Positions 25,058-46,118 of a DNA stretch of 64,000 bases are shown here, piece after piece. Location: positions 27,341 to 91,340 of the forward strand of contig JAFGHI010000007.1 of NCBI GenBank assembly GCA_016930235.1, written 5' to 3'. Made by a program: the position numbers and the translations under genes. The notes below the pieces were generated by a model. It was not told where the DNA came from, did not search any database, and worked only from the letters and a program-made list of their open reading frames with translations. The stretch's first letter is position 1; each line of letters begins with the position of its first letter. Origin of the DNA: Candidatus Omnitrophota bacterium. GTDB taxonomy: Bacteria; Omnitrophota; Omnitrophia; Omnitrophales; Aquincolibacteriaceae.

Positions 25058-25080
25058 ACACGGGAACCCGTTCCAAGCCG

Positions 25081-26594: not shown

Positions 26595-28103
26595 CTATTC
26601 AACGAGAGCGAATGGCGATTCTTCATTCAGGACATTAAAAGACTGTTGCAGCTGAGAGGCATTGGCTGAGCAGAAATATTTACCCCCTGTGATTTCGGCG
26701 ATCCGTGCCATGAGTTCATAGGCTTCGGGTTCAGTAACGTCCCCCGTGTCACAGCCTTCATTAAAATAGATGGTGTGAATTGTGATGTTCTGATTAGCCG
26801 CCTCTTGGGCCATGCGCAGAGCATAATCCGGAGCTAAATTTAATAGCTGCAATTCTCCCGCCGTACATTCATTGTAACTGCCTGGTGGTGCAGTGCGGTC
26901 ACACCAGGCGCAATCATTGACGGTTGGAGGGTCGTTTTCTTTACAAGTTGCCATCCCGTCGGAAAGAAGGATGATCTGGTTAACATGGGCATCCTGTTGG
27001 GATGCTCCCCCCAGAGCAAGCATGTTTATAGAGACTTTAATAGCATGTCCGATATTGGTAAATCCCCAATCTCCCCAGTAGTAATAATCATCAGGTATAT
27101 AATCGTTAGGGTCGTCTTGTCCCAAAGGATCTCCCGGATAGGGCATATCGGGATTCCAAGCCGGATATCCTGTGATTAAGTTGCCCTCTGCATCTTTATA
27201 GTTATTCCAGTTATTCAAAATACTATCAATTTCCGTAATGACATCATTCTTATTTTCATTGGCAGTTACAGTATTGTTGCCGGCGGGTATCCTTTGAGAT
27301 GCGATGGATCCATAAACCACGAGACCGATGCCGTAAAACCGATTAAAAAGGTGATTATTCGGATCTACAATAAAATCATGTGTTGTCTCAAGAACATCCC
27401 ATGCGGGTTGGGGCGGCCCACCCAGACATTCGGCAGCGTCGTACTCGGATTTCGGAGCAAAAATAAAGATACGTTCTGATGGATCGAAAATAGTAGCTCC
27501 CGGGCAGTTTGGAGGTTGCCCCGGATAAGTTTCATTGTCCATCGAATTGGATAAATCTAAAGCGAAAACGATGCGTCGGACAGAGGCCATAGCAATGGCC
27601 GTTCTTTGGAATGTGGCATCACTCGTGAGCCCCAAGACCCTGGCCAGCCGCCAGCTGAAGGGCTCGTTCCTCTGAGCGCCTGACCCTTGCCGGATAGTGA
27701 CTTCGACAGCGTTAACGTTTCCGGGGTCATTCTGGATATTTTTTTCTTGAAAAAAGCCCGGGGTACCATCGTCTAGGTTCGGGGGCGTCCAGAGACCAAA
27801 GCGGACATCCTGTGCGGGGTTCATCTCCACTTCCCCCGAAAAGCGGATGGTATTAAGTTTCATCATATTCTCGATAATCCTGTTGATCTCCTGTTTCTTT
27901 TGTCCCACGGCGTAGTTGTTATTAAATAAAACTTCCGTCATCCGCCTTGCGCCTGAAAGGGCTGCCATGTCCGCGGCGTTTTGAAGCTCAGTGGTAATCA
28001 GATAAGCAAGTCCCAGATCGATGGCAAGTCCGGCCGCTCCGATCAGGACAGGGAGCATGAGCGCGAAAAGGACAATAATGGCGCCTTTTTCTTTCTTCTT
28101 CAT
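26595..28103 (-). CDS. TadG-like Flp-pilus pseudopilin with von Willebrand factor A domain
   Basis: Start chosen at MKKKEKGAIIVLFALMLPVLIGAAGLAIDLG, a TadE/TadG N-terminal prepilin-like helix. A vWA MIDAS motif (VFALDLSNSMD) follows. The track ORF extends to 28154. Confidence 0.6.
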   Translation of the reverse strand: MKKKEKGAIIVLFALMLPVLIGAAGLAIDLGLAYLITTELQNAADMAALSGARRMTEVLFNNNYAVGQKKQEINRIIENMMKLNTIRFSGEVEMNPAQDVRFGLWTPPNLDDGTPGFFQEKNIQNDPGNVNAVEVTIRQGSGAQRNEPFSWRLARVLGLTSDATFQRTAIAMASVRRIVFALDLSNSMDNETYPGQPPNCPGATIFDPSERIFIFAPKSEYDAAECLGGPPQPAWDVLETTHDFIVDPNNHLFNRFYGIGLVVYGSIASQRIPAGNNTVTANENKNDVITEIDSILNNWNNYKDAEGNLITGYPAWNPDMPYPGDPLGQDDPNDYIPDDYYYWGDWGFTNIGHAIKVSINMLALGGASQQDAHVNQIILLSDGMATCKENDPPTVNDCAWCDRTAPPGSYNECTAGELQLLNLAPDYALRMAQEAANQNITIHTIYFNEGCDTGDVTEPEAYELMARIAEITGGKYFCSANASQLQQSFNVLNEESPFALVE

Positions 28104-28150
28104 CCGACCTTGAATGGTTGCATATCCTTTTTTTATCATAACATTGTACC

Positions 28151-29056
28151 TCAAGGCTCTCTTTTTGCGCCGCCTGCTTTGGCGGTATTCCTTGGCACGA
28201 AAGGATTAAGCGTTGCCGTTGCCGTTGCTGTTGCCGATGCCGTTGCCGTTGCTGTTGCTGTCGCTGTTGCTGCTGCTGTAGGCGTTGGTGTCGGGGTTGG
28301 ACTTCCCTCAGTCGTTGGTGTCTCATGCGGTGTTGGTGTTGGCAAATCCGGCAGAGATGGCATTATGCTGGGCCAGAATGACGGCAGCCATAATGTGGCC
28401 GTCGGTGTATAGTGGGGTGTTGCTGTCGGTGTCCACGTTGACGTTGGTGATCCACCCGGTGTGGGTGATCCACCCGGTGTGGGTGTTTCAGTCGATGTAG
28501 TGGTAGCCGTTGGCGATGCCGTCGGCGATGCCGGAGGCACGCTCGCGGCTGCTGACGGCCCCACAGTGGGTATCTTGGGTGGCGCGTCCGGGATATTCGA
28601 TAATTTTGGCGGTCCCAACGTCACGTAATAAGAAGAAGCACTTGCTTCTAGATCAAGATTGCCAGATAGCCCGGGCAAGAATCCCGCTACCGGGGATTGA
28701 AAGGTCGTATGAACCGTAACGGTAATCGGGTCTTTTCTCAAATCGGTTGGGATCTCCACATCCGCCAAAGGAGTAAAGGTGAGCGGAAACGTGTAAGGTG
28801 CGGAGGTCCCCGCATATTTGACGCTTGCGGCCTGACGAATAGACGTATCCGTCGGCTCCGGAGCTATAGCGGCTTCACGAACCGTTTCCCGGGCAATGCG
28901 GTATGCCGACACCCATTGATAGAATGCCCGTCCGAATTCGATGATCCCAAAAATAAGCATGAGAAAAAGGGCAAGAAGAAGTGCCGTTTCTACGATTGTC
29001 TGGCCTCGATTTCTACTGAGCCATCGTTCCGTTTTTTTTGAAAATATTTTTTCCAT
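28151..29056 (-). CDS. TadE-like pseudopilin with long C-terminal Pro/Thr/Ala-rich low-complexity tract
   Basis: The TadE signature RGQTIVETALLLALFLMLIFGIIEFGRAF follows the start chosen at MEKIFSKK (29056). The C-terminal ~150 aa are PT-rich (PTPGGSPTPGGSPT, PTPTPTAAATATATATATASATATATAT). Confidence 0.6.
   Translation of the reverse strand: MEKIFSKKTERWLSRNRGQTIVETALLLALFLMLIFGIIEFGRAFYQWVSAYRIARETVREAAIAPEPTDTSIRQAASVKYAGTSAPYTFPLTFTPLADVEIPTDLRKDPITVTVHTTFQSPVAGFLPGLSGNLDLEASASSYYVTLGPPKLSNIPDAPPKIPTVGPSAAASVPPASPTASPTATTTSTETPTPGGSPTPGGSPTSTWTPTATPHYTPTATLWLPSFWPSIMPSLPDLPTPTPHETPTTEGSPTPTPTPTAAATATATATATASATATATATLNPFVPRNTAKAGGAKREP
28190..28520. repeat. Low-complexity/short tandem repeat DNA encoding the Pro/Thr/Ala-rich tract of the pseudopilin
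   Basis: GTTGCCGTTGCYGTTGCC-type 6-nt periodic repeats lie at 28200-28300. A 20-nt direct repeat GTGATCCACCCGGTGTGGGT occurs twice at ~28448-28490. These produce spurious ORFs in other frames. Confidence 0.7.
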
Positions 29057-29075
29057 TTTTACCCTCTTTTTTTCT

Positions 29076-29615
29076 TTAGGTTCGTCCGCACGTCCATACT
29101 CCGCTTTCATTCCATTGGCAGCGCTGACTGTAAGCATAGGTTGTTACCGATACATATAATGTCGGGTCAATCCCCAGTAAGTTTTCCAATAACCCGCCGA
29201 GAAAATATTCGGGCTTGTGACGGATTCTTGTCATGAAAATAATAGCACCTTGAATATTCGGCGGATCGTCATTCAAGTTAATATGAAAATCATTCATATC
29301 GAGAAAATAGTGCGATAGGATGAAAGGTAGCGGAGATTCCGCCCAGTGCGGGATCCCTGAATCGGCAAGGACACGTCGGGCCCGATTTGCTCCCATTTGG
29401 GGCATCTCCGCAGTCGGGAGTGTTGATTCTGCGCCAATTCGCGTTCCTTCTCTTGCGGCTGCAACCATACGGTGATAAGTATAAATCATATTGCTAATGT
29501 CAATTGCGCCAAGGACCAATAATAACAGGATAGGCAGAATAAGCGCAAACTCAACGAGTGCTTGTCCGCGACTGTCCATTTTCGGCTTTAATTTCATTCT
29601 AGCGTCCTTCATCAT
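29076..29615 (-). CDS. TadE-like pseudopilin (first gene of the minus-strand pseudopilin operon)
   Basis: It contains RGQALVEFALILPILLLLVLGAIDISNMIYTYHRM. In-frame alternative starts lie at 29597 and 29579. It lies divergent from the GT39/PA14 gene across a 336-bp AT-rich region. Confidence 0.6.
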   Translation of the reverse strand: MMKDARMKLKPKMDSRGQALVEFALILPILLLLVLGAIDISNMIYTYHRMVAAAREGTRIGAESTLPTAEMPQMGANRARRVLADSGIPHWAESPLPFILSHYFLDMNDFHINLNDDPPNIQGAIIFMTRIRHKPEYFLGGLLENLLGIDPTLYVSVTTYAYSQRCQWNESGVWTCGRT

Positions 29616-29951: not shown

Positions 29952-31943
29952 TTGGAGACTATGAACCTTTCCATGTCTTTTCGCAAGATTAATGAAACTC
30001 TCCAAAGAGCCTTTTCCCGCATCAATTGGCCGATGGTGATTATTCTATCACTCGGGGCCCTGTTGCGCCTTCTTTTTTTGGACTTGAAGCCGCCCCATTC
30101 GGATGAGGGGGTGGACGGGTCTTTTGCCAATCAAATTGCCTCCGCCGGCTTCTTTGAATATGACCCCAAGAATTTTCACGGGCCTTTGCATTATTACCTG
30201 CTTTTTTTCTTCCGTCTTTTCCTGGGGGAATCTCTCGGGTCTTTAAGAATGTCTTCAGCCCTCTTTGGGGTCGCCTCGATTTTTATTGTTCTGCGTTTGG
30301 CTCCCTTTATTGGAAGGCGTGCGGCCTACCTGGGCGGTCTTCTTTTTGCCGTTTCACCGGGCCTTGTCTTTTTCTCAAGGAGCGGTATTCACGAATCGGG
30401 ATTTTTATTTTTCTCTCTCCTGGCTTTTTACGGGTATTTCCGGTTGCGTCAATTAAAAGATAAACCGGCCTTATGGGGGGTGGGCTTGGGAGCTGCCGGA
30501 ATGATTCTAATGAAAGAAGTGTACATCATCCATCTCTTCTGTTTTTTCTGTGCTTTTCTCGCAATGTTTTTTTGGGGGAAAATATCGCCTACAAAGCAAA
30601 ACGTTCGGGCCGGTTTAAAATTCAACGGACGGGATATCCTTGTCGTGAGTCTCACTTCTTTTTTTCTGATCGTACTTTTTTACTCCGCTTTTTTCCTTCA
30701 CTGGAAAGGAATTATCGGCATTTTTCAGAGTTTCTTCGAATGGACAAAGACCGGAGTTGAGGGAAAAGGCCATGGGAAGCCGTTTGTTTATTTTTTCCGG
30801 CTTTTTTGGGAATACGAATGGCTGAGTCTGATCGGGCTCGTGCTCGTTTTCCGTGTCTTCTGGCCGGTCCCAAGACCCGTTCGTTTCCTGGGTTTTTATG
30901 GCCTATTTATTTTTTTAGCCTATAGCCTGATCCCTTACAAGACCCCTTGGTGTATCATGCAAATGATTTGGCCCCCGCTTGTCATTTTAGCCTATGTTGT
31001 TTCCGAGATCTCTCACCATTACCGAAAGATTGGCTGGTTTGCAGTGCTGTCAGTGTTCTTGATCGGCTCCCTGGAAACGGCGAAAGCGGTCCAGCTGAAC
31101 TTTGTTGATCCGTCAAACCCGAAAGAACCCTACAACTATGTTCAGACGATGCGGCCGATTATGGATGTGCATGCCCGGATACGGGACATGATTCAAAAGG
31201 ATCCAAGAATCAAATACGTCCCGGTTGTTGTCATGATGGAAAACAGCTGGCCTGTCCCTTGGCTTTTCTCCTTTTTTACGAATGCTGGTTACTATGGATC
31301 AGCGATGAAAGGGAGGCGTGATGCCGCCATCCTCTTTTGTGACTCTGCGGAACGCGGGCCTTTGGAAGTGGTACTTAAGGAAAAGTATTTTTACGAACAA
31401 ATATTATTTCGGGAATTTTACGGCGGCGAGCTTCGCATCTATTACCAATATGATTTATTCAAGGATTTCCTGGAAGATGAACTGCCGGTTTTTGAGCCCC
31501 TTGAAATCCCGCTGCCCGGGCCGGGAGAAGGATATATCCAGAGGATTTATGATAATGCCGAGTGGCAGGGGAAGCCGGTATTTGAGCGGAATGTCTTACG
31601 CATCCAGCAATCCTGGGATAACCGGGACCGTCCCTGGCCTGCGCCTTTCGGGATGATTTTTGAAAGCGAAATTTATGTCCCCGAAGAAGGGGAGTATGAG
31701 TTTTTCCTGGCGAGTGATGACGGGAGCGATCTGGAAATAGCGAAGGAGAAAGTCGTTGATAATTTGGGTGCGCATCCTGAGCGGATTGTCTCCGGGGAAA
31801 AGTTTCTGAAGAAGGGATGGCATCCGCTTAAGATCCGTTACAATGATATCGGCGGTGGCGGTATGATCCGCTATTGGTGGAAACCGCCCGGAAAAAAGGA
31901 AGAAGATCTCCCGGTCGAGTATACCCGGGTTCGAGAGGTCTAA
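29952..31943 (+). CDS. GT-C membrane glycosyltransferase (GT39/PMT_2-like) fused to a C-terminal PA14 domain
   Basis: N-terminal polytopic domain with an extracytoplasmic HSDEGVDG (DE) motif. The C-terminus (FESEIYVPEEGEYEFFLASDDGSDLEIAKEKVVDN...GWHPLKIRYNDIGGGGMIRYWWKPPG) matches the PA14 beta-sandwich pattern. Confidence 0.55.
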   Translation: METMNLSMSFRKINETLQRAFSRINWPMVIILSLGALLRLLFLDLKPPHSDEGVDGSFANQIASAGFFEYDPKNFHGPLHYYLLFFFRLFLGESLGSLRMSSALFGVASIFIVLRLAPFIGRRAAYLGGLLFAVSPGLVFFSRSGIHESGFLFFSLLAFYGYFRLRQLKDKPALWGVGLGAAGMILMKEVYIIHLFCFFCAFLAMFFWGKISPTKQNVRAGLKFNGRDILVVSLTSFFLIVLFYSAFFLHWKGIIGIFQSFFEWTKTGVEGKGHGKPFVYFFRLFWEYEWLSLIGLVLVFRVFWPVPRPVRFLGFYGLFIFLAYSLIPYKTPWCIMQMIWPPLVILAYVVSEISHHYRKIGWFAVLSVFLIGSLETAKAVQLNFVDPSNPKEPYNYVQTMRPIMDVHARIRDMIQKDPRIKYVPVVVMMENSWPVPWLFSFFTNAGYYGSAMKGRRDAAILFCDSAERGPLEVVLKEKYFYEQILFREFYGGELRIYYQYDLFKDFLEDELPVFEPLEIPLPGPGEGYIQRIYDNAEWQGKPVFERNVLRIQQSWDNRDRPWPAPFGMIFESEIYVPEEGEYEFFLASDDGSDLEIAKEKVVDNLGAHPERIVSGEKFLKKGWHPLKIRYNDIGGGGMIRYWWKPPGKKEEDLPVEYTRVREV

Positions 31944-31950
31944 AAATCTT

Positions 31951-33714
31951 ATGGGCATTGTTGTTTTCTTTTTAGTGTTTACGGCGGTTTCAACGACTCT
32001 GGCTGTCCTCCTTGCTTCGGTCATGGGTTATCTGGCTGTTTGGATTGTTTGGGTTTCTTTCTTGGCCGGAATGGCGGTCGGATTTTACGGTTATTCGTCA
32101 TCAAAATCGTTATCTTTATCGCTTCGGCCGGTTTCCTTTTTCGATGGGTTCATGCTTGTTGCCTTTACCGTTTTTTGCCTGCGCCATTTCCTCTGGGTTT
32201 ACTATTACCGTGACGGAGGGATGCGGATTTTAGATCAATATAATTTTAGTGATATGCCTTTGCATCTGACCAATGTTGCTTATTTTGTCCGGGGGACCGA
32301 ATTTTGGCCGGACAATCCTATCTTTGCAAGCCTTAAGATGCATTATCCTTTCGGTGTCGATTTCTTTACGGCCATGTGGGTCAAGATCGGGGTGCCGGTC
32401 GACAGGGCGATGCAGCTTGTCGGTTTGGGCGGAGGCCTTCTTGTCGGGATTGCACTTTTTATTTGGGGCCGGGCATTTGCGTTGGCCGCCTTCCTTTTTT
32501 CAGGCGCTCTTCATGGGTTTCAGATCTTTTTGAATATACCTCTGACTGATTATGTGACCGAGCTGCCGTGGAAAAATTTGGCCCTGACGCTCTTGATTCC
32601 TCAGAGGGGTTTCCTTTTCGGGTTCTCGGCGGGACTTTTATTGTTATGGAGCTGGCGGCGGCGTTTTTTGACTCAAGACAAACCACTTCCAGGATTTGTC
32701 GAAATCTGTCTCTGGGGGCTGATGCCCCTATTTCATTTTCATACTTTTCTTTTTCTGACCTACATATATTTGATTTGGTTTTTAGTTTCCGGAAAATGGA
32801 CCCGTGAAAACTTGGGGATTGCCTTGGGGGTATCCATCCCGGCCTTGATCGAATCTTTTGTCTTAACGGACGGCTTTCGTTTAGCGTCCCTCGTGTGGTG
32901 GAAGCCCGGGTGGTTGATCGAAGGCCGGCCCCTTTATTTTTTTATCGCTAATTTTGGTTTGTGGATGCCTCTTCTTTTTCTGGCCCTTGTTTTTGCGTAC
33001 AGAAAAAGACGGTCCCCAAAACCTGAAAGTGACGGAAAATTACCCGCCTCTTGTTTCTGGCATCATCTCTGGCCGGCCCTTTTGTTATGGGCTGCGCTCT
33101 TTTTTGTCATGTTGATGCCGTGGGATTGGGATAATATGAAGCTGATGGTCTGGTGTTATTTACTGATCTTGCCGGCGGTCGACAGTTTAGTGATTCAAAA
33201 AATTCCGAAAGGCTGGCGCTTTCTCGTTTTCTTTTTCCTTTTCTTTTCCGGTTTTGCGGTCGTGGTGAGTTCCGTCGGCCGGGAACAGAAAGGTTCTGAA
33301 GTTATTCGTCTGGAGGAACTGGACGAAGTTTGCACCATCGCACGGAAAATGAATCCTGGAGATACAGTGTTGATTTACCCAACCTTTAATCATCCGATCT
33401 TGCTTTGCGGGTATAAAGTGGTTGCAGGTTACGGCGGTCATACTTGGAGTCATGGGCTTCCCTCCGCAGAGATCGAAAATAAGATCCGCCGGATTTACCT
33501 TGGAGAAAAGGATTGGAAGGGAATTCTTCGGGAATTTGGACCACGCTATCTTTTCTGGGGACCCTATGAGCGCTGGGCCTATTCTGAGTCTACGCGCCCC
33601 TGGGAGGATGAGGCGACGGCGACGCTCATCGCCCGAGGCAAGTGGGGGACAATTTATGATTTGTCGAAGGCGTATACATTGCAGGATGACCAGGAAAATC
33701 TTACACCCCGTTAA
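31951..33714 (+). CDS. Large polytopic membrane protein, paralog family member B
   Basis: 587 aa with ~14 TM helices. Its C-terminal domain (VLIYPTFNHPILLCGYKVVAGYGGHTWSHGLPSAE...RRIYLGEKDWKGILREFGPRYLF) is homologous to the C-termini of the 11019 and 35593 proteins. Confidence 0.4.
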   Translation: MGIVVFFLVFTAVSTTLAVLLASVMGYLAVWIVWVSFLAGMAVGFYGYSSSKSLSLSLRPVSFFDGFMLVAFTVFCLRHFLWVYYYRDGGMRILDQYNFSDMPLHLTNVAYFVRGTEFWPDNPIFASLKMHYPFGVDFFTAMWVKIGVPVDRAMQLVGLGGGLLVGIALFIWGRAFALAAFLFSGALHGFQIFLNIPLTDYVTELPWKNLALTLLIPQRGFLFGFSAGLLLLWSWRRRFLTQDKPLPGFVEICLWGLMPLFHFHTFLFLTYIYLIWFLVSGKWTRENLGIALGVSIPALIESFVLTDGFRLASLVWWKPGWLIEGRPLYFFIANFGLWMPLLFLALVFAYRKRRSPKPESDGKLPASCFWHHLWPALLLWAALFFVMLMPWDWDNMKLMVWCYLLILPAVDSLVIQKIPKGWRFLVFFFLFFSGFAVVVSSVGREQKGSEVIRLEELDEVCTIARKMNPGDTVLIYPTFNHPILLCGYKVVAGYGGHTWSHGLPSAEIENKIRRIYLGEKDWKGILREFGPRYLFWGPYERWAYSESTRPWEDEATATLIARGKWGTIYDLSKAYTLQDDQENLTPR

Positions 33715-33717
33715 TTC

Positions 33718-34836
33718 TTAAAAAGCCCACTGGCCTGTCACGAATCTCAATAGGAAAAATCCATAGAGCATCCCCGACAGCATCACAAGAAGAGTGTGGA
33801 GCATGCGGTTGCGGACGAGGACCGCCAACGCGATGAAGATCGGGAAGATTGACAGACTGTAACGCGGGATACTGAGCCAATAAGAAGTGGATGTGATGAC
33901 GAGCCATGAAGTTATTGCGAAGAATCCGTAGGAGATCCGCAGCCGAAGAAGTGCCCATAAACATAAAAGAAGTGAACCAAGGGCAAAGATCAATTCTGTG
34001 ATTGAGACGGTCACGAGTTCGCTGGGAGACCGCCATTGAAGCGATTCGATGGCGTGAACCAATCCTTTCCAAGGGAAATAGATAGTTTTTCCCCATTGCG
34101 CTTTCGAGATTTCAAGGAAGGCAAAAGGGGATTGAAAGTAGTAATAATTGATCCAGAGATAACTTAGCACTCCCAAAGGAATGAGGAAGAGAAGAAATAT
34201 TTTTTTATCGATTTTTTTCCACTGCCAGTTTCTTTGGGTAAAATATTCGATCAGGATGGCAATCGCAAGACAGAACCCCGTGATCCTTGTCGCCGTGGCG
34301 AGGACTCCGAAGAGTACGCAAACTGCCCATTCATTCCTCCGGGCGTGGTAGAAACACCCCAGGGTAAACAGGATAAAGAGGCTTTCGGTATAACCGGCGT
34401 GAAGAAAATAAGCGCTCGGAAAGACCGAGAGATAAAGAACGGTCCTTAAGGATATTTCTTCCGGATAATCCATCCTTGCGAGGCGGTAAAAATAGATGAC
34501 AACTCCAACGTACGCGGCATTCGAAATAAGAAGCGAGGAGAAAAGATGATGATGGGTGAAGAAGGCCGCGAAATTGATCAGGATAGGATAAAGCGGAAAA
34601 AAGACAATCGGGATTTTACTGCCTTCGGTCGAATAACCCTCGCGGGCGATCTTTAAATAATGAACTGTGTCCCAACGGTTCCAGATCTCCAGCCACGATG
34701 ACGGGAAATGGTTTTTTGTCGCGATGTAGGCGGCGGCAGCAAAAAGGAAAGTGCCTAGGGTCATGATGACGGCCAGCAGGGCAAGCTGCACCGAAGGTTT
34801 TTCCCACGAGATGATGGTTTTCTTAGAGTTTTTCAT
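33718..34836 (-). CDS. PIG-V-like (GT76-type) polyprenol-phosphate-mannose-dependent mannosyltransferase, membrane protein
   Basis: WNRWDTVHYLKIAREGYSTEG...IVFFPLYPILI matches the conserved WDxxHYLxIAxxGY...FFPLYP signature of the PIG-V/Gpi18 family. ~9 TM helices. It overlaps the upstream GT2 by 4 nt. Confidence 0.5.
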   Translation of the reverse strand: MKNSKKTIISWEKPSVQLALLAVIMTLGTFLFAAAAYIATKNHFPSSWLEIWNRWDTVHYLKIAREGYSTEGSKIPIVFFPLYPILINFAAFFTHHHLFSSLLISNAAYVGVVIYFYRLARMDYPEEISLRTVLYLSVFPSAYFLHAGYTESLFILFTLGCFYHARRNEWAVCVLFGVLATATRITGFCLAIAILIEYFTQRNWQWKKIDKKIFLLFLIPLGVLSYLWINYYYFQSPFAFLEISKAQWGKTIYFPWKGLVHAIESLQWRSPSELVTVSITELIFALGSLLLCLWALLRLRISYGFFAITSWLVITSTSYWLSIPRYSLSIFPIFIALAVLVRNRMLHTLLVMLSGMLYGFFLLRFVTGQWAF

Positions 34837-35555
34837 TCGTAATAACCTAATACGTCATAAAGGCGAATCCTAAAAAGATCCAGGAACATCCCCAATGCAT
34901 GCTTCATGACCTGGACCGTCGACTCGCGTTCGTTATCGCGCCATTTTACCGGAGCTTCGCGAACTCGCAAACCCCATTTTTGGGCGAGAAATAAAATCTC
35001 GGTATCGAAGCTGAACCCTTGAAGTTTTTGTTTTTCGAAAATCTTGGCAGCGGCCTCCTTGCGGAAAAACTTAAAGCCGCATTGGGTGTCCCGGTAAGGG
35101 AGGTTGAGGATCAAACGGCCGAGGAGATTGAAGATCCTGCCGGCCAATCTCCGAAGGAAACCCTGCCGCATCCTGCTTTTGGAGCCGGGAAGCCATTTGG
35201 AGGCGATGACAAGATCAAAACCATTTTGGAGGTCTTGGATAAATGTTTGGATATGCTGAATAGAAACCGGCATGTCGGCATCCGTAAAAAGGAGATATTC
35301 ACCCCGGGCTTTCAGCATGCCCTTTCGGACGGAATAACCTTTTCCGTAATTGTCATCGTTTTGTAAAACCTGGAGTGAAGGATCTCTTTGAGCAAACGCG
35401 AAGGCCTTTTCATACGTGTCATCAGGGCTGGCGTCGTCGATGACCAGGATTTCATAAGTGAGGGTCTCTTTTCGGCAGTAATGGCTGATTCGCTTTAAAG
35501 TTTTTAAGATACGCCTTCCGGCCAGATAAGCGGGGATAACAATGGATAAGTTCAT
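34833..35555 (-). CDS. Polyprenol-phosphate sugar synthase-type GT2 (Dpm1/GtrB/ArnC-like)
   Basis: MNLSIVIPAYLAGRRILKTLKRI...YEILVIDDASPDDT and later DADMP/QCGFK blocks are typical of dolichyl/undecaprenyl-phosphate mannose/glucose synthases. Start chosen at the MNLS ATG (35555) to avoid overlap with the upstream gene. Confidence 0.65.
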   Translation of the reverse strand: MNLSIVIPAYLAGRRILKTLKRISHYCRKETLTYEILVIDDASPDDTYEKAFAFAQRDPSLQVLQNDDNYGKGYSVRKGMLKARGEYLLFTDADMPVSIQHIQTFIQDLQNGFDLVIASKWLPGSKSRMRQGFLRRLAGRIFNLLGRLILNLPYRDTQCGFKFFRKEAAAKIFEKQKLQGFSFDTEILFLAQKWGLRVREAPVKWRDNERESTVQVMKHALGMFLDLFRIRLYDVLGYYE

Positions 35556-35592
35556 CGGTTTCCCGCGAAGAGAATTCGTTGAATCTGTCATT

Positions 35593-37581
35593 CTAATCCT
35601 TGATTCCCTGGCAGATATCTTCTCGCGAAAAATATCTTGCCTGATAAGGGCTTTTATTTTCTTCAAAAACCGGTTTCAATTCATTTTGAAAGAGTCCATC
35701 GTGGGTTTCGACTTGGTGTTCCTTCATATCAGAGTGCTCAAGCTGGATATAATCGATTCCGTTTTGCCTTAAATAACTGCAGAGTTCTCCGCGATTTTCT
35801 GAGGCGTAAATTTTCTGGGTTAGGGCAACCCGTTTATCCACGGGATGTTCCAGGCTATCATTAAAATAGGGCCACCCTTGGAAGGTTGTGCGGCCCGCAA
35901 GAGAGACTGGATTGTAAATCCGATAATTGGTCAAGAAGACAGCATCTGTGGAAGTATTCTTCCGGATCCATCGGCTTGAAGGATCCTGCGCAATATCCGC
36001 AAAGTTGTAGAGAAAACTGTTTTTAACGGGGGTGGCATCGACAATGCCCGATGCGGTAAGCAAAATGAACAGCAGGCCTGCCCAGACGGGCCCGCCCCAT
36101 CGATTACGGAAGATCCGGCTCAAGAGGAAGGCAATATAACAGTTTCCGATGATAAGGGCCAGATTGAGAAATTTGTGATTGGTCCCGATGTCGCCGCTGA
36201 AACGAAAGAGATGGGCGATCAAAAAGAGCGCAAGAGGAATGAGAAGGATCCTGCGTCTTCGGGAATCGACGAAAAGGAAAGACAGGGGGATGAGGAGAAA
36301 GCTTAGGCCCCAATTATAGAACCAGAACCGGAAAAACGACAAAATGCCGTTTAAGAATTGGTTGATGAGGGCTGAACTTGAAAAACGGATTCCTGTACCG
36401 AAAGTCGGGACAAGAAATCCAAAATACCACCCGCTGTGCTGGACCTGATCCTGGTTGGCCAGTTGGAGCCACAAAAATTGCGGGGCCCCGATCAGAATCG
36501 CAGCCAAAAGGATCCATCCGCATTGTTTCTTGATCGGGAAGGTGAGGAAAAGGATCCCCAGAATCATGAGAAGGCAAACGTAAGAGGGGGTATGCCAGAA
36601 GGGAAGGATCCCGGCAAGGAATCCCAAAAAAACGGATTGTTTGACGGATAACGTTTCACTCCCGTCTTTTTTGAGAAGGGTTGAGATAATCGGAATCAGA
36701 ACCAAAAGGATGACCGCGTAACCCAGAAGGAGTTGCCGTTGGTTGAGGTAAATATTCCAGTGCCAGTAAGCACAGACAAGGTTCCCGTCATACGGTCCGA
36801 AGCTGACATAATTTTCGAGGTTCCACCAGGATTTAAGGATAGAAAAAAAGGACTCCCCCTTCTGTTGATTGAGGAATAAAACAAAGGAGAGGGAACTGTT
36901 AAAAAGAAAGAGTAAAACAGAGACCCAGCCAACGAATGATTGCCCATCAAAGAGAGTTTTACCGAAGAAGTAAAGGAGGATTAGAAACGCGCACCAGAAA
37001 AGGGTGCTCGGGAGCGCTACGGCAAAACCGATAGGCAGCCCAAGCTTCTCGAAGGTGCCGGCCATAAAATCAAAAAGAAAGTGATAGCGAAGAAAATCAT
37101 GAGCAAAAATGGGGTTGAGGAAATCGAGGTTATTCCCAATGCTAAACGAACGGATTAAGGGGATATGAAAGGCGAAATCGCTTACCACGAGACTGGATAT
37201 CCTGAGTGTTTGAAAGGGGCCGGTTGACCAGAAGACATGAGAAAAGATGATCCAGGAGGAGGCAAGTAAAATTCCCAGTAGGATAGACTCCCCGGTGGAC
37301 AAGCGGAATTGGAATCTCAGATGCTTCCTGAAGAGAATAAGGAGAGATGTCTCGATGATAAGCACCGTCAGAAATGACGGGAGGACCGTCTTGGCCCCTA
37401 AGGGTTTTAATAAGAGTGTGATGATAAAGACACCCCAAAAGGAGACGAGAACTCCTAGCAGAAAAGAAGAGGTTAAAGCAAGCAGCCCCGAAAACCTTGG
37501 CAGGAATTTCGCGGTCAAAAGATAACCCAGCCCCACGCTGAGCATTCCGAATAACGCGGTTGTGAGAAAGGCCTGCATCAT
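35593..37581 (-). CDS. Large polytopic membrane protein, paralog family member C
   Basis: 662 aa with >14 TM helices. Its C-terminal domain (VFLTNYRIYNPVSLAGRTTFQGWPY...KIYASENRGELCSYLRQNGIDYI) is related to paralogs A and B. Confidence 0.4.
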   Translation of the reverse strand: MMQAFLTTALFGMLSVGLGYLLTAKFLPRFSGLLALTSSFLLGVLVSFWGVFIITLLLKPLGAKTVLPSFLTVLIIETSLLILFRKHLRFQFRLSTGESILLGILLASSWIIFSHVFWSTGPFQTLRISSLVVSDFAFHIPLIRSFSIGNNLDFLNPIFAHDFLRYHFLFDFMAGTFEKLGLPIGFAVALPSTLFWCAFLILLYFFGKTLFDGQSFVGWVSVLLFLFNSSLSFVLFLNQQKGESFFSILKSWWNLENYVSFGPYDGNLVCAYWHWNIYLNQRQLLLGYAVILLVLIPIISTLLKKDGSETLSVKQSVFLGFLAGILPFWHTPSYVCLLMILGILFLTFPIKKQCGWILLAAILIGAPQFLWLQLANQDQVQHSGWYFGFLVPTFGTGIRFSSSALINQFLNGILSFFRFWFYNWGLSFLLIPLSFLFVDSRRRRILLIPLALFLIAHLFRFSGDIGTNHKFLNLALIIGNCYIAFLLSRIFRNRWGGPVWAGLLFILLTASGIVDATPVKNSFLYNFADIAQDPSSRWIRKNTSTDAVFLTNYRIYNPVSLAGRTTFQGWPYFNDSLEHPVDKRVALTQKIYASENRGELCSYLRQNGIDYIQLEHSDMKEHQVETHDGLFQNELKPVFEENKSPYQARYFSREDICQGIKD

Positions 37582-39234: not shown

Positions 39235-39402
39235 ATGGCGAAACTATTAGCGGCGCTCCAGGTATGGAAAAGCCAAAAGGGTCAGGGGATGGTGGAATAT
39301 GCGTTGATCCTTTCTCTTATAGCAGTCGTAGTGATATTGATTTTGACTACTATGGGGAAACAGGTCACCGCGATCTTTACGACGATTTCCGCTGCGTTAT
39401 AA
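39235..39402 (+). CDS. flp: Flp/Fap family type IVb pilin (55 aa; missed by the ORF track)
   Basis: Translation is MAKLLAALQVWKSQKGQGMVEYALILSLIAVVVILILTTMGKQVTAIFTTISAAL. It has the canonical Flp G/xxxxEY processing motif and a hydrophobic helix. An AAGGAGGG RBS lies 6 nt upstream. It sits at the head of the cpaB-tadC operon. Track ORF 39264..39554 is the wrong frame. Confidence 0.8.
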   Translation: MAKLLAALQVWKSQKGQGMVEYALILSLIAVVVILILTTMGKQVTAIFTTISAAL

Positions 39403-39456
39403 CGGCAGCTTCAAAAACCCTGATGAAACCTTTCAGGGCGAGTAGATTTACACAAA

Positions 39457-39502
39457 GAGATGGGAAGATTGCAGTTTGTGGAATCTTCCCATCTCTTTTT
39501 TT
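39457..39502 (+). terminator. Rho-independent terminator after flp
   Basis: GAGATGGGAAGATT-loop-AATCTTCCCATCTC (a 14-bp perfect stem) is followed by TTTTTTT. Confidence 0.8.
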
Positions 39503-39770
39503 AATATTCATTCTTGACCTAACGAATAATCCTTACCGGCTCCTATTTCCATGAGAGACTTTTTTCAAATCCGCTTCTTGCTAGGGCATTCCAATTCGGG
39601 TCATCAGGGTAGGATTATCCAGGACCTGGTGATTTTTGAGGCTGGAGATGCCCCCAACACCTTTAAAAGGTTCACTGTAACTTATTTGATGAAAGGGGCT
39701 TCAGATATTTAGGTCTTGGACGATACTTTATTAAGGCAAAAATACTTGAATCAATCATGATGAGATAACT

Positions 39771-40574
39771 ATGGCGCGAATCAAAAACTCATTTGTTCTT
39801 ATGCTGGCCATCGTAACGGGGGTGGCCGCGTTTATCATCAGCATCAATTTTATCAAGCCTCAAAAAGAAGCGGTCGTGACCGATACGGGTACGATGGTTG
39901 TGACGGCAGCCAATGATATCCGGATCGGGACAAAGATTTTGAAAAAGGATATTGATCTACTCCCGGCCCCATCGGGAGTCAATGCGAAAATTCTTTTTAC
40001 GGAAATGAATCAGGTGATAGGCAAACTGAGCCGCTCGAATATTTCGAAAGGGACCGCCATCCGCACGCTGGATCTTTATGAAGAAGGAGAAAGTCTAGCC
40101 AGCCTTATTCCGCCGGGATATCGCGCCATGAGTATTCCCGTGACGATGTCCGGAAGCTTGAGTAAGCTGGTTTATGCCGGTAACCGTGTGGATGTGCTTC
40201 TCACTTACCGGCGCGGGATGGGGGACTTCCAAACCATCACACTGGTTAAGAATGCGAAAGTTATTGATGTGACCCAATCCGGGCAAAGCAGCGGAGGGGA
40301 AGTCCAGATGTCGATCACGCTGGCGGTAACACCCGAAGGGGCGAAGACCCTGGCGTTTGCGATGGAAAAGGGGACTTTAAAAGTTGCCGTTTATTCAATG
40401 GAAGATGTCGAAAGGGAAGAGCAGGAAAGGTTTTTTACCTTGAAGGAACTCTTCTTTCAGGAAGAGGAAAAAACCTATCGGGAACTGATCCCTACGCAGG
40501 ATGGTGTTGAGACGATCCGCGGGCTGAGAAAAGAAAAGCAAAAGTTCGATAGCGAAAGAATGGGTACGTCATAA
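39771..40574 (+). CDS. cpaB: Flp pilus assembly protein CpaB/RcpC
   Basis: N-terminal TM anchor, then SAF/RcpC-like domains. It lies between flp and the secretin gene. Confidence 0.7.
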   Translation: MARIKNSFVLMLAIVTGVAAFIISINFIKPQKEAVVTDTGTMVVTAANDIRIGTKILKKDIDLLPAPSGVNAKILFTEMNQVIGKLSRSNISKGTAIRTLDLYEEGESLASLIPPGYRAMSIPVTMSGSLSKLVYAGNRVDVLLTYRRGMGDFQTITLVKNAKVIDVTQSGQSSGGEVQMSITLAVTPEGAKTLAFAMEKGTLKVAVYSMEDVEREEQERFFTLKELFFQEEEKTYRELIPTQDGVETIRGLRKEKQKFDSERMGTS

Positions 40575-40590
40575 GAAGGAGGCGGTGGTT

Positions 40591-42453
40591 ATGTCGGATT
40601 CAAGAATCCTAAGCTTGAGAAGAACGTTCTTGAATCGTTTTTTTGTTTTCAGCCTAGCGGTTGTTTTTGGGATGGGGATGATGCCGGGAGTCGTGGTTGA
40701 TAATGGCCTTTCCTCCGCTTATGCAGCGGGGGCCTCTTCGGGTTCATCGACGCTCCGTGCGCCTCAATCCGTTACGGTCATAGAATCCAGGCAGGATGCA
40801 GCAGGTCCATCGGGGTTATCGCAACATAACATTCTTCCCGAGACATGGGTTGAGGAAATTAAAATGGATGAAGGCCAGCTTGTTGTTGTTGTCGGGCGGT
40901 CCCATCTTTTACGGTTCAAAAAAAGTATCGGACGGGTCTCGGTTTCCGAGCCTGAAATCCTGGATTTCCTGATGCTTTCGCCGACGGAACTATTATTGAA
41001 CGCAAGGGCCCAAGGGGCCGTGAATTTGATTGTCTGGGATACCGAGAACCGCGTCTCCAACATTGATGTTAATGTGATTAATGACCCGACCTTGCTCAAG
41101 AGGCTTCTCCAGAAGATAGACCCCAAGGGGGATTTTGAGGTCTATCCTTCGCGCGATGTCTTTGTCGTGGAGGGGGAAACATCCAGCGTCTTAAAATCCA
41201 AAGAGATTGAAGATGCCGCCAATGCCTTTGCCGAGGGGAGTATCAGTCTAGTCCGCGTGAAAGAGACCAAGCAAATCCTTCTACAAATCCGATTCATTCA
41301 GGTAGACCAGTCCCAAGATTTTGATTTCGGACTTGATTTCGAACACGCCGATCTCTTCCATGATTATATTGTAACTCAGCGTTTTCTCCCGGGCGGAACG
41401 CATGCTCAAACGGGCGGTGATTCCAATTTTACCTTTACCAATCCTCGAACGACTTCGCAGCGTGATCAGTTTGATGTGAATGATGATGATGTGTATTCAT
41501 TTCATTTGTTTGATAACAATACCCTTATGAATGGCTTCATTAAAGCGATTGAGGAAAAGGGGATTGGGAAGACCATTGCGCGTCCTAATCTGGTCGTCAA
41601 AGACGGTGAAGAGGCCAGTTTTCTTGTCGGGGGTGAGGCCGCCGTTGTCGTTTCAACAAATAATGATATCAGTGTCGAGTTTAAGGAATATGGGACACGG
41701 CTGACCTTTAAAGCCGAGGTCCTCTATGATGACCGGATCCGCCTGGTGGTCGAGCCGGAAGTGAGCGCGCTTGATTTTACAAATGGTGTGACGGTCAACG
41801 ATATCGTCATTCCGTCTTTTACGAGCACCAAGGTCAAAACGATGGTTGAACTGGGAGAAAACCAGACCTTTATGATCGGCGGGCTTCTCCGTCAGGAGAT
41901 GCAGGAAACAGAGACCGGTGTTCCCTTTTTACGGCGAATTCCATTTTTTGGAAGGCTTTTTGAGAGTACGGACAAAACTTTTTCGGATACAGAACTCCTT
42001 GTCTTAGTGACGCCGAGATTTATCAACCCTGAGGCGAAGTCTGTGGAAACAAGTGATGATGAGTATGATATGCTTTCGCTGGCGACAAAATTACAGGCTC
42101 ATCCGGTCAAGGATGAACAGGCGGAGGCGATTGAAAGATATATCCAGGAGAACAAGCGTTATCTTGAAAAACCAATCAAGATAGAGACCGAAGTCAAGTC
42201 CAAGAAGGAACTTAAGAAAGCGAAGAAAGATCAAATAACGAAAGAGAAAAAGGAAAAAGAAGAAGTCGTCACGAAGTCGAGCAGCTTGAAGGAATTAGAG
42301 GCGGCTTTGAACTCGATATCGAGGCCGGTTGATGTTAAGAAAGAACCGAAAACGATCGCTAGGAAGCCTGCTCAGGCCGAAACCGCTAAAAAGGACCAAG
42401 CCAGCGAGCAGAGAAACAAAGGGTATTTATATCGTTCGAGAATGGAACCATAA
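40591..42453 (+). CDS. cpaC: Flp pilus secretin CpaC/RcpA with Lys/Glu-rich C-terminal extension
   Basis: The secretin domain (IGGLLRQEMQETETGVPFLRRIPFFGRLFES...LLVLVTPRFI) is preceded by BON/N-domains. The C-terminal ~120 aa are low-complexity KKEKKEKEE-rich. ATG 40591 lies 8 nt after AAGGAGG; the track starts at GTG 40585. Confidence 0.75.
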   Translation: MSDSRILSLRRTFLNRFFVFSLAVVFGMGMMPGVVVDNGLSSAYAAGASSGSSTLRAPQSVTVIESRQDAAGPSGLSQHNILPETWVEEIKMDEGQLVVVVGRSHLLRFKKSIGRVSVSEPEILDFLMLSPTELLLNARAQGAVNLIVWDTENRVSNIDVNVINDPTLLKRLLQKIDPKGDFEVYPSRDVFVVEGETSSVLKSKEIEDAANAFAEGSISLVRVKETKQILLQIRFIQVDQSQDFDFGLDFEHADLFHDYIVTQRFLPGGTHAQTGGDSNFTFTNPRTTSQRDQFDVNDDDVYSFHLFDNNTLMNGFIKAIEEKGIGKTIARPNLVVKDGEEASFLVGGEAAVVVSTNNDISVEFKEYGTRLTFKAEVLYDDRIRLVVEPEVSALDFTNGVTVNDIVIPSFTSTKVKTMVELGENQTFMIGGLLRQEMQETETGVPFLRRIPFFGRLFESTDKTFSDTELLVLVTPRFINPEAKSVETSDDEYDMLSLATKLQAHPVKDEQAEAIERYIQENKRYLEKPIKIETEVKSKKELKKAKKDQITKEKKEKEEVVTKSSSLKELEAALNSISRPVDVKKEPKTIARKPAQAETAKKDQASEQRNKGYLYRSRMEP

Positions 42454-42475
42454 TTATTACAAGGGCTAAAATCCT

Positions 42476-43771
42476 ATGAGTCATGAAAACCGGATAGTTT
42501 TTATCTCCAGCGAAGATACGACAATCGAGAGTTTTAAAAAGATAATCGCGGGGAAATTGTCTCAGTATCGCGGCAGAAAAATTGGTGTCCACACCTTTAG
42601 ATTTATCCCCAGCCTCGATGAAGTGGTGACCAACTATGCGCCCTCGCTTATTGTCGTCAATATCGAACCGGATCAGATGGAAGCGAAAATGGAATTCATC
42701 AGTCAGTTGGGCCGCTTGGCCAATCGCATCCCCGTGGTTGTTTCTGCGCCGGCTTTTGATACCGAACTGATGATGACCTGTGTCAAACGCGGGGTGAAGG
42801 ATTTCCTCAATACCCCCTTTAAAGAAGATGAGATCAAAGAAATGTTCCTGAGGATTCTGGAGGATGCCGGTGCTGTTTCAGCGAAAGGGGTCGGGCTGGC
42901 GGAGACGTTCACTTTTTTCAGCTATAAAGGCGGTATTGGCAATACTTTCTTGGCTTGTAATACAGCGGTCGCGTTGAGCCGTATCACTGGCAAGCGGGTC
43001 CTTCTGTGGGACCTGGTTCTTCAGAATGGGGACGTCCCCTTTTTCTTTGATGTTGAGCCGAATGTGAATTTGTCGGATCTGATGGAAAATCTTCCCGATA
43101 TCGATGAATCCTACTTGAGGGGGACCCTTCCGATCCATTCAAGCGGCGTGGCGATTTTATCGGGTCCCAAAAGGCCGGAAGAAGCCGAGGGGATCCGTTA
43201 TGACCAGATTCAAGGGCTCCGGCAGGTTTTGAATCAGTATTACGATTATATTGTCATTGACGGCGGACATGTCCTGACCGATCAGATTATCGGCGCCCTG
43301 GATATTTCCAAGCACATCCTGCTGACAACCGATTTGCATCTGCCGGTCTTGAAAAATACTCTGCGCTGTGTTGAAGTGTTTGAGCGTCTGGGATATGTGG
43401 AAGGAAAGTTCAAGATTATCCTTAACCGGTATAATTCCAAATATGAAACGTTCGATCTCGATCGCGCCCGGGAGATTCTCCGCTATCCCATCGCGTTTGC
43501 TTTTACCAATGATTATGTGACGGTCTCCCGGTCCTTGAATACCGGGATCCCCATCGCCGAATTGGAAGAAAACAGCCAGCTCGCAAAACAATTTGAATCC
43601 CTGGCAAATCTTCTGATCACTGATTTTAAAGCCGATGTTGAAAAATCATTCTCCATTTTGGACCGCTTTAAGAGCCTTTTCCCGTCCAGCAAGAAGGCTA
43701 AAAAACGAGAGGATGAGAAAGTAGCCCTTTCCAAGGCGGCGGAAAGAGTCAAACACGATGGCGCTGAGTGA
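42476..43771 (+). CDS. cpaE: Flp pilus assembly ATPase-like protein CpaE/TadZ
   Basis: An N-terminal receiver-like domain is followed by a MinD/ParA-type domain with the deviant Walker [19 protein letters not shown]. Confidence 0.65.
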
Positions 43772-45080: not shown

Positions 45081-45119
45081 TTTTGAGAAACGCCAAATTG
45101 GACAAAGGTAAAAAATTCC

Positions 45120-46079: not shown

Positions 46080-46118
46080 TCAGATTCTAAAAACTATTTT
46101 TTGAGGAGTGTCGATAGA

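Follow-up and report, generated by a model that had tools for sequence, protein, structure and literature searches.

A PA14 domain fused to a GT-C-fold membrane protein within a Tad pilus island of an Omnitrophota genome suggests lectin-guided pilus glycosylation

Introduction

Membrane enzymes of the GT-C fold that are equipped with periplasmic or lumenal carbohydrate-binding modules are already known, as exemplified by EmbC and PMT. The extracytoplasmic C-terminus of EmbC is a beta-sandwich that serves as a lectin-like carbohydrate-binding module (CBM) for the acceptor or product glycan (PMC3044687). In Pseudomonas aeruginosa, the pilin arabinosyltransferase TfpW glycosylates Ser/Thr residues of the pilin from a polyprenyl-phosphate sugar, and a combination of flipping and transfer has been proposed for it. 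Here we describe a GT-C-fold membrane protein of the TIGR03663/Agl23 family that ends in a PA14 domain, encoded at 29952..31943 on the + strand of a 64,000-nucleotide stretch of a Candidatus Omnitrophota genome (GCA_016930235.1, contig JAFGHI010000007.1, positions 27,341 to 91,340), termed the window throughout, to which coordinates refer unless another locus is named.

The Omnitrophota are uncultured, ultra-small bacteria that are thought to live as predators or parasites using Tad pili. In the literature on this phylum the Tad complex is treated as a predation or parasitism trait, and it is expressed by Velamenicoccus archaeovorus. PA14 is unmentioned in the Omnitrophota genome literature examined, where glycosyltransferases figure only as mobile-cargo genes for lipopolysaccharide (LPS) or capsule. 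Likewise, a literature search returned no description of PA14 fused to GT-C or other glycosyltransferase proteins, nor of PA14 in the context of TIGR03663.

Results

The target gene is an unbroken reading frame of 663 aa in the open reading frame (ORF) listing of the window, and two types of domain are recognized in its product. Pfam assigns PA14 (PF07691) to aa 563-654 at 42.8 bits (curated cut-off 24; E 6.1e-11) and PMT_2 (PF13231) to aa 76-204 at 39.6 bits (cut-off 26.1), while the NCBIfam model TIGR03663 ('flippase activity-associated protein Agl23') covers aa 28-439 at 136.4 bits versus a cut-off of 126.25. An AlphaFold2 model built on the family alignment of 55 sequences has a mean predicted local distance difference test score (pLDDT) of 91.5 and a predicted template-modelling score (pTM) of 0.83, and a Foldseek search of the PDB with this model returned two independent sets of matches, to PA14 modules and to GT-C enzymes. 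The fusion is no assembly artefact, because 14 orthologous clusters with 31-42% identity align end to end in the same architecture. Hence the PA14/GT-C fusion is real, with signals far above chance.

The public record conceals this architecture. The deposited annotation holds only a 264-aa 'hypothetical protein' (MBN1687700.1, JW893_01220; window 31149-31943) starting at M400, so that the 399-aa N-terminal GT-C portion is unannotated despite the continuous ORF, and both the fusion and the GT-C domain are invisible in the public annotation of the source, a metagenome-assembled Candidatus Omnitrophica genome. The exact 663-aa sequence is absent from a collection of 15 billion proteins. The start codon is ambiguous (TTG 29952, ATG 29961 or ATG 29973, with GGAG at 29954-29957), and the choice is immaterial.

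The initial annotation, made from the sequence alone, had placed a PA14 domain in the last ~120 residues, quoting the peptides EGEYEFFLASDDGSDLEIAKEKVVDN ... GWHPLKIRYNDIGGGGMIRYWWKPPG (aa ~578-648), and this is borne out by the Pfam, profile and fold searches, all of which are significant. In a phmmer search of PDB sequences the target matches the Clostridium clariflavum RsgI PA14 dyad 6qdi (E 1.6e-6), and the 55-sequence family profile matches the RsgI3 PA14 dyad 6qe7 (E 1.7e-26). The latter match covers profile positions ~507-646; the domain therefore extends beyond the Pfam envelope, to about aa 520-655, slightly longer than first supposed, and together with a short tail this beta-sandwich occupies 31509..31940 (+). 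With Foldseek, the model matches 6qe7 (E 8e-9), 6qdi, 6x7z, 5j6y, 4lhk, 4af9 and 3tew, each at probability 1.00, and the PA14 fold matches include a Marinomonas adhesin PA14 lectin (6x7z, with sugars bound), Flo1, Epa1, anthrax protective antigen and a yeast beta-glucosidase. Within the PA14 region the pLDDT is mostly 81-97 per 10-residue block.

Sugar-binding PA14 domains share a signature consisting of a consecutive Asp pair on strand beta5 linked by a cis peptide (DcisD), a polar Ca2+ ligand (Asn/Gln) in calcium-binding loop 2 (CBL2), two residues past a stabilising Tyr, and main-chain carbonyls of this Gly/Ala-rich loop (PMC6852018, PMC8092209). The PA14B domain of C. thermocellum has no such DD pair and binds neither Ca2+ nor ligand (PMC6852018). 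Alignment to 6qdi, mapped onto the residues of PMC6852018 (chain numbering +19 gives that of the paper), places a DcisD-type pair at D589-D590 of the target (31716..31721, +), aligned with D240-D241 of C. clariflavum PA14B, as a putative Ca2+/sugar site. Y630 aligns with Y283, the partner ligand D632 (31845-31847, +) with N285, and G634 and G636 of the following Gly-rich CBL2 (G634-G637) with G287 and A289. Across 15 PA14-bearing orthologues, which are 31-42% identical overall, no variation is seen at S588, D590, G591, H608, D632, G634, G635 or W643, and the D589 position is Asp in 14/15 and Glu in 1/15. Judged from this alignment, the putative Ca2+/diol site is under strong purifying selection, which argues for glycan binding by the PA14 domain, and we hold sugar binding with moderate confidence; the cis peptide at D589-D590 is a prediction at the level of sequence. 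A caveat for a lectin role is that the CBL2 ligand is Asp in the target, in place of the usual Asn/Gln.

The membrane domain (aa 1-385; 29952..31106, +) is predicted from the model helices, the positive-inside distribution and the fold matches to comprise 11 transmembrane (TM) helices, with a cytoplasmic N-terminus. The helices are located at aa 26-45, 95-114, 124-142, 148-164, 173-187, 191-208, 227-244, 290-303, 312-326, 332-353 and 361-385, and two long periplasmic loops, EL1 (aa 46-94) and EL4 (aa 245-289), contain juxtamembrane helices. A periplasmic alpha/beta domain (aa 386-519; 31107..31508, +) follows that is common to the whole TIGR03663 family, PA14-less relatives aligning with the target to about residue 515. 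The GT-C matches of the model are ALG12, ArnT, AglB, STT3, ALG9, PglB and EmbC, with TM-scores of 0.62 for ALG12 (normalised to the target) and 0.54 for ArnT (normalised to ArnT), and the 55-sequence profile detects ArnT (5ezm) at E 7e-4. For the target, 'glycosyltransferase' is to be read as a fold-level assignment.

The topology was derived from helix boundaries of the AlphaFold2 model combined with K+R counts across the 55-sequence alignment. On family average, the cytoplasmic segments hold 14.9 K/R residues versus 3.1 in the short periplasmic loops when the protein is arranged N-in, with 11 TM helices and C-out. A plain Kyte-Doolittle scan was ambiguous on the helix number. A 12-TM alternative, with helix 78-91 crossing the membrane, would leave the C-terminus inside and all K/R-rich loops outside, and was rejected on inspection of the loop table. 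The 11-TM arrangement puts D51-E52 and the C-terminal domain on one side of the membrane. We infer from three concordant lines, with strong confidence, that the C-terminus is periplasmic, in agreement with the location given in the initial annotation.

A profile restricted to the membrane domain aligns the family motif 'PPHxDEG', located just after TM1, with 'GPDEG' in periplasmic loop 1 of ArnT, and the invariant 'YKTPW' (target aa 329-333; P332 in 54/55) with ArnT 'SKLPGY'. These ArnT segments are reported to contain Asp55, proposed as catalytic, and Tyr345, which binds phosphate (Petrou et al. 2016); a +3 chain offset is consistent with this. Based on the ArnT alignment, D51-E52 (30102..30107, +) represents a putative catalytic or donor site. 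Invariant in all 55 sequences are D51, E52, H76-G77-P78, R99, E148, K188, E189, H274, K276, Y329-K330-T331 and W333, and all of these fall on the predicted periplasmic face. The TIGR03663 family description presumably specifies an invariant DE dipeptide, an HGP tripeptide and two Arg; in this family D51-E52, H76-G77-P78 and R99 are present in 55/55 and R143 in 52/55.

The fusion is rare in the TIGR03663 family but recurrent, and it is already present in public databases. In a survey of a 5.8-billion-protein collection, 14 of the best 120 protein clusters have PF07691 as well as PF13231, except that in one of the 14, P0010, only PF07691 is called. The PA14-bearing clusters are 650-665 aa long, one with two tandem PA14 domains reaching 843 aa, and several fusion clusters bear the name 'TIGR03663 family protein [Candidatus Omnitrophica/Omnitrophota]'; all remaining clusters are 490-590 aa, without PA14, and mostly from Verrucomicrobiota. 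GTDB species genomes contain at least 588 relatives, and matches run through residue ~660 in 7 of the best-scoring 80 GTDB loci. In the 87 loci examined around family members (L-numbers below), a tblastn search with the PA14 segment confirmed the domain only in L001-L014. Hence, the description of the architecture as unusual holds in so far as the fusion is confined to a small minority of the family, but it recurs in a clade, is already in databases, and joins an established class of GT-C enzymes with carbohydrate-binding modules (PMC3044687).

PA14 itself is abundant. A word-indexed homology search with the target PA14 alone gave no match, and an exhaustive HMMER search was used instead, which retrieved 7,662 representative clusters at E<=0.001. 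The closest single-domain relatives are 41-51% identical and fall into two length classes; PA14 occupies ~520-660 in the class of ~650-662 aa and ~570-712 in that of ~704-723 aa. Of 30 such proteins scanned with Pfam, four have PMT_2, including P0140 (661 aa), and no other membrane-protein family is among the families matched. The 843-aa protein with tandem PA14 domains (P0024; L006 10001-12532) is encoded beside a family 2 glycosyltransferase (GT2), insertion sequence (IS) elements and giant proteins, one of >1,874 aa with NHL repeats and one of >2,711 aa. For L007, P0013-P0019 and P0021 (~650 aa) there is no Pfam PA14 call, and tblastn identity to the PA14 segment is 28-30%; their C-terminal domain may be a degenerate, PA14-like one.

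A second membrane protein accompanies the target. The 587-aa operon partner (31951..33714, +), which begins 7 bp downstream, has no Pfam or NCBIfam family match, and all of its listed homologues (120/120) are unnamed or called 'hypothetical protein'. According to its AlphaFold2 model (pLDDT 89.8, pTM 0.92) the partner has a GT-C fold, the best Foldseek matches being the C-mannosyltransferase DPY19, STT3, PglB, AftA and AglB, and its C-terminal domain is predicted to be periplasmic. Residues invariant in the partner family include D101, H105, P123, Y132, W393-D394-N395 and K397. In most of the 87 loci, which span Verrucomicrobiota, Omnitrophota, Melainabacteria-like and other genomes, tblastn finds a partner orthologue directly downstream of the TIGR03663 gene.

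PA14 occurs in the partner family, too. Five of the partner's top homologues (713-718 aa) possess a C-terminal PA14 of their own with the signature 'ASDDGS...D-x-GG', and partner-type PA14 proteins of ~717 aa rank among the closest relatives of the target PA14. In L003 three gene products end in PA14, namely the TIGR03663 protein (665 aa), the orthologue of the partner (717 aa) and the protein encoded after it (721 aa). Comparison of these sequences indicates that PA14 is mobile between the two members of the operon pair. Its presence on both ties the role of PA14 to the whole module, and implies that both C-termini act in the same compartment. The three consecutive PA14-ended genes of L003 (11998-17464), found in an Omnitrophota-like metagenome-assembled genome, are followed by one for a GDSL-lipase-like protein and lie inside a Tad locus. 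The 721-aa protein has no significant similarity to the 662-aa paralogue of the window described below, and it resembles another copy of the partner family.

Downstream of the operon, a glycosylation island continues on the opposite strand. A 372-aa PIG-V/PMT_2-like GT-C protein (33718..34836, -) matches Pfam Mannosyl_trans2 at 35.6 bits (cut-off 22.4) and, weakly, an NCBIfam family for 'cell surface glycopolymer formation'. It is followed by a GT2 glycosyltransferase assigned by Pfam and NCBIfam (34833..35666, -; 240 aa in the call of another assembly), whose best NCBIfam matches, all below the equivalog cut-offs, are PgfS, ArnC, AglJ, PpgS and a Dol-P-hexose transferase, and which on this basis is likely the maker of a lipid-linked donor. 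A 662-aa membrane protein (35593..37581, -) has a weak Dpy19 match and is distantly paralogous to the partner (26% over 215 aa, E 3e-6); it is probably a fourth GT-C-fold protein. In total, the island thus contains four GT-C-type proteins and one probable synthase of a lipid-linked donor; no GtrA/Wzx-type flippase was found among the Pfam-scanned genes of the cluster. In about 20 of the other loci a GT2 gene is located directly beside the TIGR03663 gene, and the core module of TIGR03663 protein, partner and GT2 is ancient and general.

The island lies within a complete Tad pilus locus and divides it into two parts. To the left of the island lie three pseudopilin genes on the - strand, encoding a TadG-like protein (26595..28154) with a Tad/TadE N-terminus and a weak VWA match in Pfam, a TadE-like protein of 328 aa (28151..29137), and a TadE pseudopilin (29076..29615) that is divergent from the target gene over a 336-bp intergenic region. 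To its right, the gene of an AI-2E family transporter (PF01594; 37667..38722, -) precedes the rest of the Tad locus (39235..46955, +), which runs from Flp pilin (39235-39402) through RcpC/CpaB (39771-40574), the secretin (40585-42453), a TadZ-like protein (42476-43771), the TadA ATPase (43758-45080) and TadB (45120-46079) to TadC (46101-46955). Embedding in a Tad locus recurs in L001/L002, L003/L004/L014, L008 (partial) and L011, with proteins 32-71% identical, and the position of the island, between the pseudopilin triad and AI-2E-Flp-RcpC-secretin, is identical in five assemblies at 37-44% identity. Only in one Omnitrophota lineage is the module inserted in the Tad locus.

The middle pseudopilin carries a Ser/Thr/Pro-rich tail in all four Tad-embedded loci with enough flank. 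In the window, the 328-aa TadE-like protein (28151..29137) has a low-complexity C-terminal tail of ~150 aa that is Pro/Thr/Ser-rich and then turns into (Thr-Ala)n; in L001 (8524-9285, 253 aa) the tail is (PTPTPxP)n, and it is Ser-rich in both L003 (7412-9418, 668 aa; ~500 aa of tail) and L011 (6969-9191, 740 aa; ~570 aa of tail). From ~110 to ~570 aa, the tails keep their composition whereas sequence and length are hypervariable, a pattern that by analogy is that of densely O-glycosylated linkers and mucin-like regions. Since the tail is downstream of the N-terminal TadE TM segment, it would be periplasmic or external and reachable by the GT-C active sites, and this pseudopilin is a candidate O-glycosylation acceptor. 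Gene callers break the L003 version up into three spurious ORFs of 80 aa on the other strand, and the (Thr-Ala)n repeat of the window gives rise to spurious overlapping ORFs at 27981-28412 (+) and 27988-28326 (-).

Several other neighbours deserve mention. The AI-2E transporter between the island and the Flp pilin gene is in the same place in all syntenic Tad loci and, at 56-63% identity, is more conserved than its neighbours; that it exports or flips a substrate is a guess. To the left of the pseudopilin triad (23945-26571, +) are a T2SSE-type ATPase, a PEMT/ICMT-like membrane methyltransferase and a calcineurin-like metallophosphatase. Second of its type in the window, the 370-aa ATPase is 68-71% identical in the syntenic loci, and it is syntenic in L001 together with the metallophosphatase. 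Just downstream of TadC, an 852-aa PAS-domain histidine kinase (47900-50458, +) may regulate the Tad locus. Throughout the window (1-64000) the GC skew is positive in every 2-kb bin, the cumulative skew rises monotonically and the long ORFs are mostly on the + strand, so the window holds no replication origin or terminus.

Discussion

Based on the fold of the target, its invariant periplasmic residues, the conserved PA14 site and the genomic context, we propose the following mechanism. A cytoplasmic GT2 would load a sugar onto polyprenyl phosphate, and the lipid-linked sugar would reach the periplasmic face, where the GT-C-fold proteins, i.e. the target, its partner and two more in this island, would transfer sugars to an extracytoplasmic acceptor. 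The periplasm-tethered PA14 domain would then bind the glycan of the acceptor or product via Ca2+ held by D589-D590 and D632. Tethered beside the active site, it may hold a growing or already glycosylated acceptor, and so confer targeting or processivity. In this Omnitrophota lineage the acceptor would most likely be the Ser/Thr/Pro-rich pseudopilin tail. Taken as a whole, the proposal that a module with a PA14 lectin glycosylates an extracytoplasmic acceptor, here probably the pseudopilin tail, is in our judgement about evenly poised between right and wrong. Its parts differ in firmness: the function of the target as a transferase rather than a flippase is proposed with moderate confidence, and the TadE-like pseudopilin tail only tentatively as the acceptor. 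Glycan recognition on the periplasmic side, as suggested in the initial annotation, fits the intact and near-invariant PA14 Ca2+/sugar signature. Of the designation 'GT-C glycosyltransferase', the fold stands, while the activity is qualified by the flippase description of the only studied family member.

Several observations weigh against this proposal. We know of no TIGR03663 protein for which transferase activity has been shown. PA14-bearing orthologues are also encoded outside Tad loci (L005/L013, L006, L009, L010 and L012), as is the PA14-less majority of the family; the pilus link is therefore lineage-specific, and PA14 independent of the pilus. None of the PA14-bearing genes outside Tad loci in L005, L006, L009, L010 and L012 has a Ser/Thr/Pro-rich ORF beside it, and some such ORF is present in 5/73 PA14-less loci. 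Hence these tails are associated with Tad embedding, not with PA14 as such, and the idea that a mucin-like acceptor always accompanies PA14 was dropped. The position of the stabilising Tyr630 is Y in 7/15, F in 6/15 and H in 2/15 orthologues. Finally, the only studied TIGR03663 member, Agl23 of Haloarcula hispanica, is regarded as a putative hexose-P-dolichol flippase in the account given by PMC11182771, and it translocates a lipid-linked oligosaccharide in liposomes (PMC11182771).

The last point leads to a different assignment of roles, in which the membrane domain of the target chiefly flips or scrambles sugars linked to polyprenyl phosphate and the partner GT-C proteins do the transfer, with PA14 capturing the flipped sugar head-group or the product of the partners, or docking the complex. 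The target passes the NCBIfam cut-off of a family named for flippase activity, purified HhAgl23 translocates M5GN2-PP-lipid in proteoliposomes and rescues a yeast rft1 deletion (PMC11182771), three other GT-C-type proteins of the cluster could serve as transferases, and the Pfam-scanned cluster genes include no GtrA/Wzx-type flippase. Nevertheless, about twenty residues of the periplasmic face are invariant (55/55), including those at the acidic motif of the ArnT/PMT catalytic loop and at the K-x-P motif, which is the pattern of an active site and not of a scramblase groove, and the archaeal genetic phenotype, as summarised in PMC11182771, cannot separate flipping from transfer. We therefore consider a role mainly in flipping unlikely, and note that TfpW has been proposed to combine flipping with transfer; by analogy, such a dual role would reconcile the two views of the target. 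Alternatively, the module may build or decorate a non-protein envelope glycopolymer, such as LPS/lipid A, capsule or exopolysaccharide, or a periplasmic glycan, to which PA14 binds, the adjacency to the Tad genes reflecting a shared address or regulon. In most members, from Verrucomicrobiota, Acidobacteriota and Melainabacteria-like genomes, the TIGR03663-partner-GT2 core has no pilus genes nearby; in L005 and L007 it is joined by GT1/GT4, methyltransferases and a mannose-phosphate-isomerase-like cupin, as is typical of polysaccharide clusters; the PIG-V-like protein weakly matches a glycopolymer formation family; and the closest structural relative, ArnT, modifies lipid A. Yet an island position unchanged in five assemblies at 37-44% identity is hard to explain without functional coupling, and the co-conserved mucin-like pseudopilin tail offers an obvious protein acceptor, so that we consider the glycopolymer, too, unlikely.

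The PA14 domain might also be a structural spacer or a protein-protein module that docks to the Tad machinery or the cell wall. PA14 domains of some proteases and toxins are without demonstrated sugar binding, anthrax protective antigen is among the fold matches, C. thermocellum PA14B alone binds no ligand, and the stabilising Tyr is not strictly conserved in the orthologues. The non-binding PA14B has no DD pair, whereas the target family keeps D590, D632 and G634-G635 in 15/15 and D589 in 14/15 orthologues, and the same signature is retained in the PA14 copies fused to the partner family, which makes a purely non-lectin function quite improbable. That the fusion stems from misassembly or a frameshift-merged ORF, or that the C-terminus is cytoplasmic, is effectively refuted. 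The deposited call of a 264-aa protein from M400 and the ambiguous naive hydropathy scan would point that way, but the ORF is continuous, 14 independent orthologous clusters from different assemblies share the end-to-end architecture, the AlphaFold2 model is confident throughout, and the positive-inside counts together with the GT-C homology yield a C-out topology.

Returning to lectin-guided glycosylation of a pseudopilin, we can envisage a more far-reaching version that, as a whole, we deem unlikely. Here the island would serve host-dependent Omnitrophota as a periplasmic machine devoted to O-glycosylation of the Tad pilus, in which four GT-C proteins, supplied by the GT2, densely glycosylate the mucin-like tail, and PA14 'readers' bind sugars already attached and drive processive glycosylation. 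Such a machine would do in the bacterial periplasm what eukaryotic ppGalNAc-transferases do in lectin-assisted mucin-type glycosylation, and would produce a glycan-coated pilus tip for attachment to prey or host. If the proposal of lectin-guided glycosylation is correct, PA14 would join MIR, ricin-type and CBM domains as extracytoplasmic lectin modules recruited by membrane GT-C enzymes, a glycosylated mucin-like minor pilin would be a possible attachment determinant in Omnitrophota, and a handle would be gained on acceptor recognition in the TIGR03663/Agl23 family, for which flipping and transfer are both candidate roles. Should the architecture alone stand, the result amounts to a modest note on a domain fusion. 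The large GT-C-fold family without annotation, whose members share operons with TIGR03663 proteins almost universally in several phyla, bears on how the archaeal Agl23 results are read. New here are PA14 as the lectin module and its exchange between two GT-C families that are operon partners, the second of these families, which is unannotated, and the presence of a multi-GT-C island in a Tad locus beside a mucin-like pseudopilin.

In conclusion, the locus combines features of several known systems. To Agl23 of H. hispanica the target is linked by a match above the family cut-off over aa 28-439 and by the invariant DE, HGP and Arg residues, and the Agl22-Agl23 pair is mirrored by the GT2 gene adjoining the TIGR03663 gene; however, Agl23 is archaeal, works with dolichol phosphate and is described as a flippase, whereas the target is bacterial, PA14-bearing and located in a Tad locus, and most members of its family are seen without a C-terminal PA14. 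ArnT (5ezm/5f15) is the best sequence-detectable relative of solved structure, with an aligned acidic motif in loop 1, an aligned K-x-P motif and likewise a periplasmic C-terminal domain, but it shares only about 13% identity with the target and is without a lectin module. The ArnT structure reportedly has 13 helices, compared to 11 in the target model. EmbC, which is among the fold matches, and its relatives EmbA and EmbB similarly join a GT-C membrane enzyme to an extracytoplasmic C-terminal carbohydrate-binding module; this module is not PA14, and the Emb proteins, with about 1,050-1,100 aa, belong to another GT-C family that acts on arabinan. TfpW, likened here by description, is also a GT-C protein encoded in a pilus locus beside a pilin gene, with loop 1 and a large C-terminal domain in the periplasm. 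Its substrate is the major pilin of type IVa pili, and no PA14 is reported for it, while the target resides in a Tad (type IVc) locus with the tail of a minor pseudopilin as candidate acceptor. With the PA14 domains of RsgI3/RsgI4, Marinomonas MpIBP and the yeast Flo/Epa adhesins, the target PA14 shares the fold, the predicted DcisD and polar-ligand Ca2+ site and the Gly-rich CBL2. Those characterised lectins, with Asn/Gln as the CBL2 ligand, belong to adhesins, anti-sigma factors and glycosidases, in which they are soluble, surface-exposed or sensory, whereas the target domain has Asp and is predicted to be carried in the periplasm by a polytopic GT-C-fold protein, for which the MIR domains of PMT and the ricin-type lectin domains of ppGalNAc-transferases represent further analogies.

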